Positions 25,411-30,362 are shown, numbered from the stretch's first letter. The stretch: DNA of 64,000 bases from an uncultured delta proteobacterium (GCA_963804165.1 CAWDPO010000046.1:256001-320000); one strand, 5' to 3'. Notes: generated from the sequence alone by a model not told the origin. Numbers and translations are program-made.

Positions 25411-26439
25411 TCACTTCCCCAAGAGATTCTTCATCCTATCGATGGTCTCTCGATCTGAGGTGGTGACTTCTTTAGCGAGAGTCTCCAACTCCTCGCCGCT
25501 CGTCGGATCTATCTCTAGCTTTTTCTTCTTGACGTCGGCCACGACGTCAGCATCGCCGAGGGTCTTTGAGAAAGCCTCGCGCAGGATCTTCACCCGATCT
25601 GGTGGGACGCCTGGAGTCGTAACGATGGGCCGGCCGAATTCGCCGGCAGCCAACACCAGGGTCGCCAAACGCCGGGTCGCTTGGGGCGTCTTATATTCGT
25701 CCATCAATTCGTAGACGGTCGGTACGTCGGCCATTCTCGGATCGCGTTTTTTGCCGGTCTGAACCAGGACTCGAACGAACCCCTTTTTGCGCCAAGTATG
25801 GAACGGCTCACGGGCGAAGAAGCTCGTGACGGTAAAAGCTCGGCAGTGTACCTCTCCTCTTTCCACCGCCAGATCGATTTCTTGTCCGCCTTGGTATCCG
25901 GTGACGATGTTAAACTTAGTGCCGATCGCTTCATTTAAAAGCAGCATGAAGGCATGGGCGAGCCCGCCAGTCCCGGTGGAGCCGCACTTGGGCGGGTCCG
26001 AAGCCTTGGTCACGTCATGGATGGTTTTGAAAGGAGTATCCGCGCGCATATAGAGCAGATTGTACGAACGTTCAAAGCTTCCCAGCCAAGTAAACTTGGC
26101 CCAGTCGAACTGAACCTCCTTTCTGCCGATCAACTGATCGAAATAAAGCGCCGGCAAGAAAATGGCGAAAGTTAAACCGTCCGGCTTGGCGACGTTATAA
26201 ACATAGTTAGCGGCGGTCATGGTGGATGCGCCGGGCATGTTTTGAACGATGATGTTGGGATTTCCTGGAATATACTTGCCCATGTGCTCGGCCAAGATGC
26301 GCGCATAGATATCGTACACGTCGCCCGCGGGGAGTCCCACGATAATTCTTATTGTCTTTCCCGCGAAGAACTGAGTCTGAGCTTGAACGTTGGACACCCA
26401 TAGAAAGAAAAACGTGAACGCGACAGCGATTTTCTTCAT
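25411..26439 (-). CDS. TctC/Bug-family binding protein
   Basis: FFAGKTI, NMPGA, KPDGLT, GYQGG, ERGEV, PGVP. Confidence 0.9.
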   Translation of the reverse strand: MKKIAVAFTFFFLWVSNVQAQTQFFAGKTIRIIVGLPAGDVYDIYARILAEHMGKYIPGNPNIIVQNMPGASTMTAANYVYNVAKPDGLTFAIFLPALYFDQLIGRKEVQFDWAKFTWLGSFERSYNLLYMRADTPFKTIHDVTKASDPPKCGSTGTGGLAHAFMLLLNEAIGTKFNIVTGYQGGQEIDLAVERGEVHCRAFTVTSFFAREPFHTWRKKGFVRVLVQTGKKRDPRMADVPTVYELMDEYKTPQATRRLATLVLAAGEFGRPIVTTPGVPPDRVKILREAFSKTLGDADVVADVKKKKLEIDPTSGEELETLAKEVTTSDRETIDRMKNLLGK

Positions 26440-26560
26440 GGAATAATCTCCTTCCTTGCGGTCACCGGAAAACCAACGGGGAGAACCAACACTGTCAAGT
26501 TTTTGATTCTGCTATTCGCACACAACATCAGTCGTAATCGACGGGATCTGGGAGAGATAA

Positions 26561-26992
26561 TCATTTTTTCTTGCCGGGTTCCGCTTGGTAACCTTGTTCT
26601 TTCCACTTGCTGACGGGACAAAATGTTGTGCTGGTGAATCCGAGGTCTTCGGCTAGCTTCGCAGCCTGCGAGCTTGATGCTCCGGTGCCTCACGTGAAGA
26701 CGATGTAGGTATCCTTGGAAATCTTTTTCAGATAACCCTCGAGCTGATCCAAGGGAACGTTGATGGCGTCGGGGATGGTTTCTTTTTCAAAATTGGCCGG
26801 CGGTCGGACGTCGATGATCATCACCGTGCCGGCATCAAGTTGCTTCTTGAGCTCGTCGGCCGGCGTCGGTTTGGCGCCGACGGCCCATCTCGTTTTCGGA
26901 TCTACCTCATATTTGCGCTGTTGTTGGGCGAAGGACGACGCGGCAAAGAGTAAAAGTGAGGCAATGGCTAGCTCCACGATCAACGATTTCAT
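26561..26992 (-). CDS. Exported rhodanese-like sulfurtransferase, probable selenoprotein (UGA at 26690-26692 read as Sec)
   Basis: Signal peptide; IIDVR..F..TIPDAINVP; read-through gives YIVFT-U-GTGASSSQAAKLAEDLGF..WKEQGY, completing the rhodanese fold to a TGA at 26561. Confidence 0.85.
26651..26689 (-). promoter_or_regulatory. Candidate bacterial SECIS hairpin
   Basis: 3' of the UGA: AGC-UCGC-AGGCU-GCGA-AGCU stem-loop with G in the apical loop about 23 nt from the UGA. Confidence 0.65.
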
Positions 26993-27109
26993 AAATTCTC
27001 CTTTTCAAAGGATCGTTTGGATGGGCGCAGGCTAACCGGAAAAGCTTGCCGTCGTCAATCCCGGGCGTGGTAAGACGCGTCCCTAATTCGAGCCGGGCTT
27101 TTGAAGGGT

Positions 27110-27125: not shown

Positions 27126-27529
27126 CCTAAATCTGGATTCTATCTCAGGTAGTTCGTGGGGTCATCGGCGGACGAAAATTTCGGGCGAAATTCCAAATTG
27201 CAGCCACTGATGATCTTCGAACGTGTTCAACGACGTCGACCGTTTGGTAGCACTGGATCGGGTAATTGTCGTGTTGAAAAAACCTGGGCCGGTGGAGGCG
27301 ACGATGAAGTGGGGCGGTCGTCTGAAGCGAACAAGGAAAGACTCTCGCCCCCTTTGGTCTTTTAGGATTAAAGGGATGAATCAGCCGCAGCGTACTTCAA
27401 TGAAATTCCTCTTTATGGCTGCCGCGGCGTGAGCGAAGTCTTGGTTCGGGTAACCATTCTTGAAGTGTCAGTGCAGTATGATCACCAGGACAAAGAGAAC
27501 AGCCTCCGTTCTGGACTCGAAGGGGGATA

Positions 27530-28036
27530 TCACTTTCGAAGTCGACAAGACCTCCGCAGGTGCATATCGACTCCGTGATCATGCAGATTTTGTGGCGTGA
27601 AACTTGTCTCCTCGTAACCACCGTCACGGGTTTCGTATTTAACCACTACCGACTGAATAGTCCACCTTATATCAAAGGCTACGGCTCTATTTCTATCCAA
27701 ATAGTCACCGAGTACACGCAGGCCTGCCGAAAGCTTGTGAGCGTCCAGATCGTCGCTTGAACCTCGTCTTGACCGTCCCTGAGTTTCTAACCGGGTAGTG
27801 TCGGAGTTGGTATAGACTAGAAGTTCCGGGGACCGTTGGGGCGTTGAAACCATTTGATCGGAATCGCCCCTTCCCCAAACCTCACCAGTGACACTCTTTA
27901 GAAAGCTTGGTTCCCAGTTATGCACAACGTATTTTTCGCCAGTTTTTTTTAATGCGAAAGCCTTAATGCGGAGCACCTCTAATGCCTGCCCGATGACTCT
28001 AAGAGATTGGGAGTATGATTTAGTGGTAGGTGCCAT
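27530..28036 (-). CDS. Hypothetical protein, two-repeat family (paralog of 6514-7197)
   Basis: LRVIGQALE / LRVLGDYLD repeats; C-terminal MHLRRS vs MYMRRS in 6514. Confidence 0.8.
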   Translation of the reverse strand: MAPTTKSYSQSLRVIGQALEVLRIKAFALKKTGEKYVVHNWEPSFLKSVTGEVWGRGDSDQMVSTPQRSPELLVYTNSDTTRLETQGRSRRGSSDDLDAHKLSAGLRVLGDYLDRNRAVAFDIRWTIQSVVVKYETRDGGYEETSFTPQNLHDHGVDMHLRRSCRLRK

Positions 28037-28217
28037 CAATAGCCGATCCCCGCCGTATAGAAAGCAATTTGTTTGAATTTGCGAGAAGGCCAGCAACCGC
28101 GGAAGCAAATAGCGTTCTTCAAATCAGTCACGCAGCTTGCCATCTGGGCGCGCAGTTTCCCGCAGAACGTAACAGAGTAATTGGCACAAAATAGAAGAAT
28201 CAGCACGTTGTCTCGAA

Positions 28218-29251
28218 TTACATCCCAGACGTTTTGTCTCGAACCAGGCGCTGAACGTAACATAGACTGTCTCTTGAGTCGAAAACATTCTGGCCGCAAG
28301 TGACTGTTCCCTGGAGCTTACCTGGGCCCGGGAATGCGTCGTCGGTGTTATTGCCTTTGTCGGGACAAAAGCTGCGCCCAATCTGTGATGTTCTGGCACT
28401 GGGTTAAGTTGCCGCCATTTTTTATCACCGGAATCAAGTAGCAACGATTACGGGTCGGCTTTGAACATCGGCTTGAGGTGGCCATTAACGATCGTTTCAT
28501 TCACACCGTTTGCGACATTTCCACAATAGCCAACATCGATTGCGGGCTGGCCCGCGCAATAAGGCAGCTTTTCGAACAGGGCGCGAACCTCATCGCGTGC
28601 TGGCGTTGTCTATTTGATAAGTTTCCCAGCCGCCGGTGCTATTGCCTCCCGACTGGAAATCCAAAATTACAGTCACGATTCGGGCCTTTGCAGAGACCTT
28701 CCACGACTACGATCGGCAGTCCGGGAAGCGCCTGGTTCACAGCAACGGCGCTGACGCTCACATCGGCTGTCGTTCTAGCTGGCTTGCCCAAACAAATTGA
28801 GCAGTGGCGTCAAGAACAGCGGGGATTTCATGGCTTTCGCAGCGCTTCCGCCGTAGGGGTTGGTATTTTCTAATGCCACTCGAGCTCCGTTCGCATTGTT
28901 GATGTTGACTCCTGACGTGGTAAATTCGCCGGTCCCGTTGTCATATTTCACGAGGGTCACGTTCTTTTGATCGATTTGATTGTTAGGACTGTCGAGATAA
29001 TTGTTTCCGGTGCCGGGATTTGTTCCGCCGGGGTTAAACTTTGCCGCTCGGTCTGTAACTGTCGACCAGTTTCCACTCGGGATTGCCGATGCGGCAGCCA
29101 GCGCCGCCGCATCCACGGCCGGCTGACCCTGAGATCGCACATAGGCCAGATGTCCTGTGTCTAATCCCATGCCGACCATGATCAAGAGCAAAACAATCAT
29201 CAGAGTCATGAAGACGAGCGCATAGCCTTGTTGATTTTTTAACGGCTGCAT
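28218..29251 (-). CDS. tadG: TadG-like Flp pilus minor pilin (at least five apparent +1 frameshifts)
   Basis: QQG-YALVFM prepilin-like N-terminus, GLDTGH, Q.AVDAAALAAA; reconstructed C-terminus ...SVSAVA...GGW...YLIPVI...RLVRDKTSGM* ends at 28218. Confidence 0.75.
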
Positions 29252-29267
29252 ATAAGCCTCCATTGAC

Positions 29268-29786
29268 CTAAGCGGAATAGGGTCCGTAACTGGTCGGAGT
29301 CGTGCAATAATTATTATTTATGTAGGGCTGATATTTGTAGTGCATTTGCGTTCCCCGAGAGATCGTCAGAGTGTTTGGAGCGCTACCGCCAAACAATCGT
29401 ATTAACTGATACATGAAAAATTTGTATTGACCCTGTGCCTTCACTTCGACAAATTCCATACAGGCCGTTCCCGTGTAAAATGTCACCGTGACGGTCTTGT
29501 TTGTCAGGTAGGCTGGCAATCGGCTAATGACTTCTGTTTTCACCGTATCGGCTTCAGCCGAGCTAAAGATTAGGTTGGGAACGTTGCCGCTCTTTTGAAG
29601 TCCGCTGCCGATGCGCGCTCCCTCCCGAGCCGCGGTCTGAATCAGGTTACCCATAAAAAACGAAACACCGAAATCGACGGGTATATACAACGCAATCAGC
29701 AAGAGCGGAGTAATGAGCGAAATCTCGACGATTCCCTGACCTCTTTGATTATTGCGCATCGATCCATTTTCACTCACAGCGTTCAT
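29268..29786 (-). CDS. tadE: TadE-family pseudopilin
   Basis: RGQGIVEISL, DFG, AAREGARIG. Confidence 0.9.
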   Translation of the reverse strand: MNAVSENGSMRNNQRGQGIVEISLITPLLLIALYIPVDFGVSFFMGNLIQTAAREGARIGSGLQKSGNVPNLIFSSAEADTVKTEVISRLPAYLTNKTVTVTFYTGTACMEFVEVKAQGQYKFFMYQLIRLFGGSAPNTLTISRGTQMHYKYQPYINNNYCTTPTSYGPYSA

Positions 29787-29831
29787 TGGTTGGCCCTCCC
29801 TGTTTTCGCTCGTTCACTTCGAACTCACGCG

Positions 29832-30362
29832 TTAGCATCCCGCTTGCGCCTCCCACCTCATGCGTGTTTGACGCGTGATCGGCGTATCGTTTAAGTTTCC
29901 TGAGACGCCCACCCAATGGAGGAGCTGGTAGAAAAAGAAGTGGTAGGTTCCGGATACCGCGACTGTCACCATCCGGTTGCAATTTGTTCCTATATCAGGA
30001 TCTAGGTTCACCGTGATCGTCGCGGCTGGAAGGAGCGCCGCCGAAATCCTTCCTGCGGTTTCCTTAAATATGTTTCCTGTACAAGAAGGCACGACGCAGC
30101 TGGTCGTTCCGCTAACGAGCGTGCGATCGGCCGACGCGATTCTGGCTCCTTCACGCGCGGCGTTCTGAGCGAGCTGCCCCGTATAGAACGCAAGCCCAAA
30201 ATCTGCCGGTATCCAGGCGACAATCAGCAGGATTAGAAACGTCAGCGTGAACTCGACCACGGCTTGGCCTGACGAACCGGTTAAACCCATTAGACCCTTT
30301 CGACTTAGAAGCGGGGAAGATGAATCAAGTGACATCTTTCGAACTCCTTCTGCTTTCCGCAC
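29832..30362 (-). CDS. tadE: TadE-family pseudopilin (start uncertain)
   Basis: SGQAVVEFTL, DFG, AAREGARIAS. Confidence 0.9.
   Translation of the reverse strand: MRKAEGVRKMSLDSSSPLLSRKGLMGLTGSSGQAVVEFTLTFLILLIVAWIPADFGLAFYTGQLAQNAAREGARIASADRTLVSGTTSCVVPSCTGNIFKETAGRISAALLPAATITVNLDPDIGTNCNRMVTVAVSGTYHFFFYQLLHWVGVSGNLNDTPITRQTRMRWEAQAGC

Follow-up and report, generated by a model that had tools for sequence, protein, structure and literature searches.

A predicted exported rhodanese with selenocysteine at its catalytic site in an uncultured delta proteobacterium

A 64,000-nucleotide stretch of DNA from an uncultured delta proteobacterium (GCA_963804165.1, CAWDPO010000046.1:256001-320000; hereafter the window) carries on its minus strand, at 26561..26992, a gene that in all likelihood encodes a real, translated, exported rhodanese with selenocysteine (Sec) at the catalytic position. 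From the sequence comparisons described here, we put the probability of this reading at about 85%. The in-frame UGA at codon 101 is assigned to Sec because the genome holds the sel genes together with a tRNA-Sec, because homologues carry cysteine at the site, because the region behind the codon is translated, and because a hairpin downstream of it is constrained. The sel genes, the Sec/Cys pairs, the downstream conservation, and the hairpin constraint also support the core of a preliminary description of this DNA, which had proposed a hidden selenoprotein with Sec at the active site of a rhodanese. The source genome is a 7.5-Mb assembly in 46 contigs, 81% complete.

Results

A rhodanese reading frame continues past an in-frame TGA

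The minus-strand open reading frame (ORF) 26992..26690 encodes 100 amino acids (aa), ends in KDTYIVFT, and stops at a TGA (26692-26690). When this TGA is read as Sec (U), 42 further residues follow in frame (UGTGASSSQAAKLAEDLGFTSTTFCPVSKWKEQGYQAEPGKKK) before the next TGA at 26563-26561, and the total read-through product has 143 aa. The complete selenoprotein coding sequence (26561..26992, minus strand) comprises 143 codons and a terminal TGA, the internal UGA (26690..26692) being codon 101. No selenocysteine insertion sequence (SECIS) is found behind the terminal TGA (26561..26563), the true stop. The full read-through protein matches the Pfam family Rhodanese (PF00581) over residues 45-121 (E 1.2e-16, 61.5 bits versus a cut-off of 22.2), and the match therefore spans the TGA. 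Profile alignments to solved rhodaneses place the TGA on the catalytic Cys of the CxxGxRS loop. The coordinates given in the preliminary description are exact. Its ORF break at KDTYIVFT-TGA on the rhodanese catalytic site is borne out by the ORF, by the Pfam match across the TGA, and by the profile alignments, and its 143-aa product by the in-frame translation.

Homologues carry Sec or Cys at the site

A protein search gave 253 matches, of which the 120 listed supply our figures on homologue lengths and residues. Most of these (103/120) are 99-101 aa long, i.e., they are gene calls ending at the TGA, and one of that length, from a Candidatus Binatia metagenome-assembled genome (MAG), carries the NCBI name rhodanese-like domain-containing protein. 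Eight homologues of 142-149 aa from the protein search (P0008, P0010, P0018, P0031, P0036, P0046, P0048, and P0063) have a Cys aligned to the UGA. Cys homologues align through the site to the end of the protein (FTCGTGRTSSQAAKLAEE...FCP...WKEQGY and FTCGTGRTSSQAAKLAEELGF..TTFCPV..WKEQGY), and these eight full-length forms supply the Cys-aligned homologues conserved past the codon that had been proposed as a check.

In a six-frame search of 61 related genomes, full-length orthologues with one in-frame TGA, or with a TGA and damage, were found in 12 further genomes, the matches spanning residues 1-142/143. One of the 61 genomes (G031) has CGA, for Arg, at the site. Another, G043, holds a 38%-identical relative from a different family of the same order, in which the TGA and the later Cys are both present. 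This relative forms one half of a second, distant Sec/Cys pair (FYUQGGGRAS in G043 versus FYCQGGGRAS in P0258) that is independent of the first. P0258 itself is among the more distant exported single-domain relatives keeping both cysteines that were found in a search of 1.84 billion representatives. Scans of public genomes and of metagenome contigs added 22 and 80 loci, respectively; the metagenome scan used patterns from a Cys-form alignment, and its 80 loci are the best 80 of 100.

Pooling and de-duplication of the 72-nucleotide (nt) segments around the site left 73, with TGA in 67, TGC in four, and CGA in two. Three loci outside the pattern of these 73 segments are two further Sec forms and one further Cys form. 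Soil DNA contigs from one DNA run cross 26690-26692, and no change is listed. The TGA is not a sequencing error, since 67 distinct segments from a range of assemblies share it and soil contigs cross the site. The objection that reads might show TGC or TGT instead, anticipated in the preliminary description, fails on the same 67 segments and the unchanged soil contigs.

The record titles of the MAGs that carry the family name Candidatus Binatia, 'delta proteobacterium', Thermodesulfobacteriota, Acidobacteriota, Vicinamibacteria, and Acidiferrales. For the natural Cys homologue P0010, the protein-atlas clusters are rhodanese-like only, and the first cluster is mostly Binatota. In a quick tree (91 rows by 120 columns, midpoint root, supports from the Shimodaira-Hasegawa-like approximate likelihood ratio test, SH-aLRT, only), three changes of the site residue are needed and the Cys clade is placed between Sec branches, the direction of change not being established by this tree.

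The region behind the UGA is translated

We compared codons +13 to +40 after the UGA between the window and 83 distinct Sec sequences, whose pairwise identity goes down to 40% over a 77-aa segment. Differences from the window number 195 at first, 139 at second, and 960 at third codon positions, a bias from which it follows that the region is translated. The same comparison gives 728 synonymous versus 323 non-synonymous codon differences. Moreover, the residues F, C, P, and W at +23, +24, +25, and +29 are 100% conserved in the 83 Sec forms, while the codons for F, C, and P vary. The terminal stop differs between orthologues (TAA, TAG, or TGA), and the internal TGA is constant. The codon bias, the four invariant residues, and the varying terminal stop versus the fixed internal one effectively exclude a pseudogene or a truncated product. 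Homologues unconserved downstream of the codon had been named as a ground for refutation; what we observed is coding-type conservation in frame.

The genome encodes the selenocysteine machinery

In the source genome, selA, selB, and selD score 610, 357, and 385 bits, each over its curated cut-off, and the tRNA-Sec (selC) scores 76 bits versus a gathering score of 47. The three protein genes lie side by side on one strand of a contig region outside the window (C16:139949-144339; loci L001, L002, and L010). All four components that the preliminary description had wanted checked are thus present above their cut-offs. The selD gene is itself a selenoprotein gene, with one in-frame TGA in a G-U-A-A-K context. 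Among the 61 related genomes, selA is found in 56, including all 13 that have a TGA homologue (the 12 with TGA orthologues and the distant G043). The selA tally (56/61) and the homologue-search tally (52/61) take in two unpublished genomes, G005 and G035, which no other result uses.

A hairpin behind the UGA is constrained in Sec forms

The candidate SECIS is a 20-nt hairpin (AGCUCGCAGGCUGCGAAGCU; 26655..26674, minus strand) that starts 15 nt after the UGA and has two G in its apical loop. Folded alone (-7.7 kcal/mol), it forms 8 base pairs (bp), with one A bulged out and GGC as the triloop, or, equivalently, 7 bp with an AGGCU loop. The apical loop, GGC or AGGCU, begins 22-23 nt after the UGA. 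The spacing rule for bacterial SECIS is 16-37 nt, and the hairpin is one that we take to resemble the minimal hairpin of E. coli fdhF. Its apical G agrees with the conserved one that the Sargasso Sea paper names for bacterial SECIS in a figure legend.

Of the 67 distinct Sec segments, 63 carry the hairpin unchanged, as do both Arg segments. Across the six codons that it spans (S S Q A A K), synonymous diversity stays at 0.00-0.02. Among 49 other codons that are conserved and degenerate, it is never 0.05 or less, with a minimum of 0.14 and a median of 0.48 (Mann-Whitney p 4e-5). Each of the four distinct Cys forms spells the same residues, SSQAAKL, with a nucleotide version of its own, and the version of Cys form L076 is unfolded (0 kcal/mol). 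The four variant Sec hairpins comprise one with a compensatory change from C-G to U-A, one with U-A changed to U-G, and two with a single broken pair each. The AGGCU-loop hairpin that the preliminary description had placed about 23 nt downstream is thus confirmed, by its position and by this comparative constraint.

The distant Sec form of G043 has a different hairpin, whose loop lacks GG. A genome-wide search for the apical motif behind an in-frame TGA gave six places, one of which is the rhodanese gene. Across the window, scans gave no Rfam family at its gathering score and no tRNA. Three Cys forms (L073, L074, and L092) retain most of the hairpin, with a compensated stem and the loop U changed to C, and other Cys forms have lost it. 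The partial hairpin could be a fossil SECIS, fitting a Sec-to-Cys conversion.

The active site pairs U101 with an invariant cysteine

The rhodanese homology domain (26630..26860, minus strand; residues 45-121) is supported by PF00581, AlphaFold2, and Foldseek. The AlphaFold2 model, made from a 20-row family alignment, has a mean predicted local distance difference test score (pLDDT) of 80.8. The top Foldseek matches are single-domain rhodaneses (3nhv, E 3e-8, template modeling (TM) score 0.62; 3gk5, root-mean-square deviation 1.6 Å). Many rhodaneses match with a Foldseek probability of 1.00 and with TM scores, normalized to the full 143 residues, of 0.62-0.64. The protein is classed as a rhodanese on a score above the gathering threshold, the rhodanese fold, and U101 as the nucleophile at the start of the active-site loop.

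In the window, that loop is U-G-T-G-A-S-S; it has no Arg and keeps the Gly that is conserved at +3. In the 83 distinct Sec forms, position +4 is most often Ala, which yet reaches just 30%; others have Arg there, as in UGTGRSS and UGSGRQS. The Arg-less loop noted in the preliminary description is therefore true of the window's copy and a trait of a sub-clade, not of the family.

The second cysteine in place of the usual GG, also noted there, holds throughout. Cys125 (codon TGT, 26618..26620, minus strand), in the FCP motif, aligns in the profile alignments to the first G of that GG and is a candidate partner or resolving cysteine. It is present in all 83 distinct Sec forms, encoded by TGT or TGC, and is also kept in the Cys forms and the distant exported relatives. 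In a DSSP assignment on the model, strand 96-100 ends directly before U101 and strand 120-124 (beta5) directly before C125. The strands preceding the catalytic residue and the second site are neighbors in the parallel sheet of the rhodanese fold, and U101 and C125 should therefore lie close in space in the modeled protein.

At codon 75 (26768-26770), the window has Asp in the IPGAIN motif, where 19/20 aligned family members and 92% of the 83 distinct Sec forms have Gly. This Asp could be a real variant, a sign of a weakened copy, or an assembly error.

The product is predicted to be exported

Residues 1-22 (MKSLIVELAIASLLLFAASSFA; 26927..26992, minus strand) have the features of a general secretory-type signal peptide: position 2 is a Lys, a hydrophobic core follows, and the residues at -3 and -1 of the cleavage site, predicted after SFA, are small. 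An equivalent ..SFA/AFA/ALA-QQQ junction is found throughout the family, before a conserved QQQ(P/R)(R/K)Y(P/E)VDP segment. The N-terminus of the model is of low confidence, residues 1-4 and 16-23, most of the first 23, having pLDDT below 50. The signal peptide of the preliminary description is thus a putative one, backed by these features, the conserved junction, and the low-confidence N-terminus. The product is most probably exported and acts outside the cytoplasm, in the periplasm. A twin Arg before the hydrophobic stretch, reminiscent of twin-arginine translocation (Tat) signals, is seen in Cys forms (P0010, P0018, P0031, and others, starting MSAYRRTILT...) and in the distant Sec form L035 of G043 (starting MVRRLVV...). 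The main Sec clade starts MKSL... and does not have it.

Damaged copies and other rhodanese-like sequences

Several copies are damaged: L030/L062 (G022), L033/L070 (G024), L034/L069 (G012), and P0113. The damage consists of an extra in-frame TAA in G022, a frame break in G024, and a replaced N-terminus in G012; an IS200-like transposase lies beside a replaced N-terminus. L070 comes from a MAG labeled Verrucomicrobiia, yet is 90% identical, which suggests mis-binning. The metagenomic protein P0047 (141 aa) has the signal peptide and N-terminal two thirds of the family joined to a canonical rhodanese active site and C-terminus (VVYCRSGARS ... GG ... W). Its sequence suggests a recombinant, or else a close sister that carries the usual motifs. 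In addition, relatives contain open frames of ~340-410 aa with a rhodanese-like stretch and one in-frame TGA (G029:C14:230200-230457, G006:C290:4099-4353, G028:C387:4724-4978, G033:C174:4759-5001, G014:C5:214051-214332, and others). These ~340-410-aa frames may represent a second Sec-containing rhodanese-domain family in the group.

Gene neighborhood and expression signals

A Shine-Dalgarno GGAG (26998..27001, minus strand; sequence AAAGGAGAATTTATG) lies 5 nt 5' of the ATG, and the GGAG-ATG layout recurs in orthologues. Approximately 145 nt upstream of the start codon, a weak promoter-like site (27137..27165, minus strand) combines a -35 ATGACC, a 17-nt spacer, and a -10 TAGAAT. It matches the consensus at 9/12 positions, and this consensus match is all that defines it. 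Since the region holds two such sites versus 0.9 expected, the site is no evidence of function.

The gene for a TctC-family solute-binding protein (25411..26439, minus strand; PF03401, E 9.6e-15) follows on the same strand after 121 nt. Between the two genes, the minus strand showed no terminator-like site, and, judging from this layout, they may be co-transcribed. For conservation of the neighborhood we used 18 long-flank loci, in which 83/157 ORFs were scanned; L088 and L149 were omitted as near-copies of L087 and L145. The preliminary description was right to place the rhodanese gene just upstream of a TctC gene, but the adjacency is not conserved, being shared by 1/18 loci (L069). A functional link to TctC was rejected on this count and on the 73 TctC-family matches in the genome. 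Similarly, NMT1/THI5-like binding proteins lie within ~2.5 kb in 10/18 loci, and this association was not used, as the genome has at least 150 such genes and the loci share synteny. In the 7.5-Mb genome, genes for periplasmic solute-binding proteins are very strongly expanded, with at least 150 NMT1/THI5-like genes (150/150 scored candidates matched, of 456 candidates) beside the 73 TctC-family matches.

For the ORF at 27530-28108, neither Pfam nor NCBIfam gave a match, and it is not similar to the 173-aa ORF found upstream of the orthologues. Upstream of it, on the minus strand at 28775-30362, are three consecutive TadE/TadG-like pseudopilin genes (Flp/Tad pilus). Other neighbors in the window include a family-2 glycosyltransferase, TadE-like pilins, and assorted oxidoreductases.

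Discussion

A possible catalytic cycle

By the comparative sequence evidence, UGA101 is decoded as Sec by SelA, SelB, SelC, and SelD, directed by the hairpin that starts 15 nt downstream. In the mechanism that we propose, the selenolate of U101, at the start of a GlpE-like U-x-x-G-x-S-S loop, would attack a sulfane-sulfur donor (thiosulfate, polysulfide, or persulfide) and yield a Se-S(-) adduct on U101. Cys125, directly after beta5, would then take over the sulfur or resolve the adduct to a Se-S selenenylsulfide with release of sulfide. The protein would accordingly relay or reduce sulfane sulfur in the periplasm. This particular Se-S/Cys125 chemistry is one that we infer, and we propose it tentatively, at somewhat less than even odds.

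Alternative readings

The main rival also accepts a real exported Sec rhodanese but makes U101 and C125 a thiol-disulfide-type redox couple, serving periplasmic oxidative folding or peroxide or sulfenic-acid chemistry, with no sulfane sulfur involved. The E. coli periplasmic rhodanese PspE can support disulfide formation, and PspE models are among the weak matches of the protein. The invariant U...C pair is similar to the two-residue redox motifs that prevail among predicted bacterial selenoproteins, most of which, according to reviews, are homologous to thiol oxidoreductases. However, the loop is of the six-residue sulfurtransferase type with the Gly at +3 conserved, the fold matches are sulfurtransferase-type rhodaneses, and no thioredoxin-, DsbD-, or CcdA-like gene was seen beside the gene in the 18 scanned loci. 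We consider such a redox couple unlikely.

Two further alternatives do away with the selenoprotein. If the UGA were a true stop, the gene would be a 100-aa truncated fragment or a pseudogene and the downstream frame a remnant. Gene callers and public records do end at residue 100, with the 103/120 listed homologues of 99-101 aa, and a few relatives are damaged (the extra TAA of G022, the frame break of G024, and the replaced N-terminus of G012). But the 42 codons past the TGA evolve as coding sequence (960 third-position differences versus 195 and 139) with invariant F, C, P, and W, the Cys homologues are contiguous, and the TGA is kept down to 40% identity over 77 aa. A fragment ending before the catalytic residue and helix alpha4 would, moreover, have no active site. 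A true stop is thus highly improbable. Even less credit can be given to a UGA read without selenium, whether by near-cognate insertion of Trp or Cys or through a reassigned code. Two gene calls of the Joint Genome Institute (JGI) do give W at the site, which is the caller's choice of code and not a measurement. Against this, TGA is also the stop at the end of the gene itself, TGA, TAA, and TAG all serve as terminal stops in orthologues, the genome has a complete Sec system, and the residue found in its place in homologues is Cys, not Trp. Constraint at the nucleotide level on a hairpin that begins 15 nt behind the UGA is, in addition, expected under SelB-dependent decoding.

Several observations weigh against a Sec-containing exported rhodanese. 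The two CGA (Arg) sequences, L024/L055 (G031) and L097, keep the hairpin unchanged, and Arg at the site in two relatives means that the residue is dispensable or was lost in some lineages. In the quick tree these sequences group as a single small clade within the Sec forms (support 85), and G031 retains selA; they may have lost the catalytic residue recently, or the rhodanese may be inactive. For the hairpin, the Cys-form control for synonymous variation consists of four distinct sequences, all from one clade. Because the hairpin is almost invariant, support from covariation is thin: 6/8 pairs never vary, there is one double change, and 13-15/500 shuffles score as high. Its folding energy does not exceed that of shuffles either (z of 0.14 and 0.24 for 81-nt and 48-nt stretches from or just before the UGA, and -1.07 for the 20-nt hairpin). 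The case for a SECIS rests on a suppression of synonymous change that is seen in the Sec forms specifically. In the window's copy, residue 7, within the hydrophobic core of the predicted signal peptide, is Glu. In the window and the scanned loci, the neighborhood offers no functional clue, and metatranscriptome contigs from three RNA runs reach 26300-26454 only, in the TctC part.

Relation to known proteins

Sec-containing rhodanese-like proteins are an established computational class, listed from marine metagenomes in the accessible parts of the Sargasso Sea, Global Ocean Sampling (GOS), and Olavius selenoproteome papers. A table in a 2026 review (PMC13188914) gives five forms, with the motifs UxxS, UxxG, CxU (NF041203), UxxG, and UxxxxU (TsoB), and its accessible text credits forms 1-3 to the 2005 SECIS-algorithm paper. 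The example accession of form 2 was found in two reviews only. Exported selenoproteins are already known, the table including DsbA-like proteins, a substrate-binding subunit, and a TonB-dependent receptor. The accessible text of PMC13188914, supplements aside, contains no occurrence of 'signal peptide', 'periplasm', 'soil', 'Binatia', or 'Acidobacteriota'.

Forms 2 and 4 share with the present protein PF00581, Sec at the catalytic Cys, the UxxG motif (here U-G-T-G), and their status as computational predictions. They can be compared by description only; the passages concerned make no mention of a signal peptide, which is predicted for the present family, or of a second conserved Cys, which that family has. 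This family, moreover, comes from soil and sediment MAGs, whereas the Sargasso Sea, GOS, and Olavius listings, as far as they are accessible, are from marine metagenomes. Form 3, NF041203 (rhodanese_LYCAU, 'rhodanese-related (seleno)protein'), is likewise single-domain and the best NCBIfam match. Membership was ruled out at 35.2 bits versus a cut-off of 115 and by an F-T-U without Cys at -2. Form 5, TsoB (NF045694), a rhodanese/DsbD fusion with UxxxxU, was also rejected, with no NCBIfam match at E <= 0.01; the present gene has one in-frame UGA and a single domain.

Among the Cys-containing rhodaneses, E. coli PspE (NF007627, TIGR02981; PDB 2jtq) is also a periplasmic, exported single-domain protein, of ~100 residues. 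Its matches are weak (32.1 versus 102 and 28.7 versus 126.3 bits; E 4e-13 to the family profile), it has Cys instead of Sec, and it presumably has no second conserved Cys. The E. coli thiosulfate sulfurtransferase GlpE (NF001195, PDB 1gmx) similarly has a single rhodanese domain and scores 27.5 bits versus a cut-off of 102. It differs in being cytoplasmic, in having Cys, and in lacking the FCP cysteine; its six-residue loop is, we assume, also of the C-x-x-G-x-S-S type without Arg. All scores being under the NCBIfam cut-offs, membership in the PspE and GlpE equivalogs was ruled out. Sud, a periplasmic polysulfide-sulfur transferase from Wolinella succinogenes, bears sulfane sulfur at the catalytic residue. 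It is likewise an exported single-domain rhodanese, deposited as 'sulfide dehydrogenase' (PDB 1qxn), and we propose it as a functional model. Its sequence relation is distant (E 2.9e-5) and it has Cys, not Sec; no polysulfide reductase gene was seen near the rhodanese gene in the window or the scanned loci.

Significance

The gene is a new member, and possibly a new variant, of the catalogued Sec-containing rhodanese-like proteins, and no new kind of system is revealed. A broader proposal would make it part of a distinct, undescribed class of exported two-residue (U...x23...C) rhodaneses of soil Binatia-like bacteria and Acidobacteriota, which would work through a selenenylsulfide cycle as periplasmic sulfane-sulfur reductases or relays. 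In this class, Sec would have been acquired once, with an unusually small, invariant 20-nt SECIS, and later replaced by Cys (once by Arg) in some lineages. We regard this proposal as possible but doubtful.

What the finding does expose is a common soil-metagenome gene that is systematically mis-annotated, the cut at 99-101 aa in 103/120 listed homologues removing the catalytic residue and a third of the domain. The family is, in addition, an exceptionally clean natural data set on a minimal bacterial SECIS, with synonymous sites frozen in 63/67 distinct Sec segments and Cys-form relatives as an internal control. Finally, the rhodanese-type selenoproteins gain a predicted exported member with an invariant Sec...Cys pair, in which the contribution of selenium to sulfurtransferase chemistry becomes directly testable.

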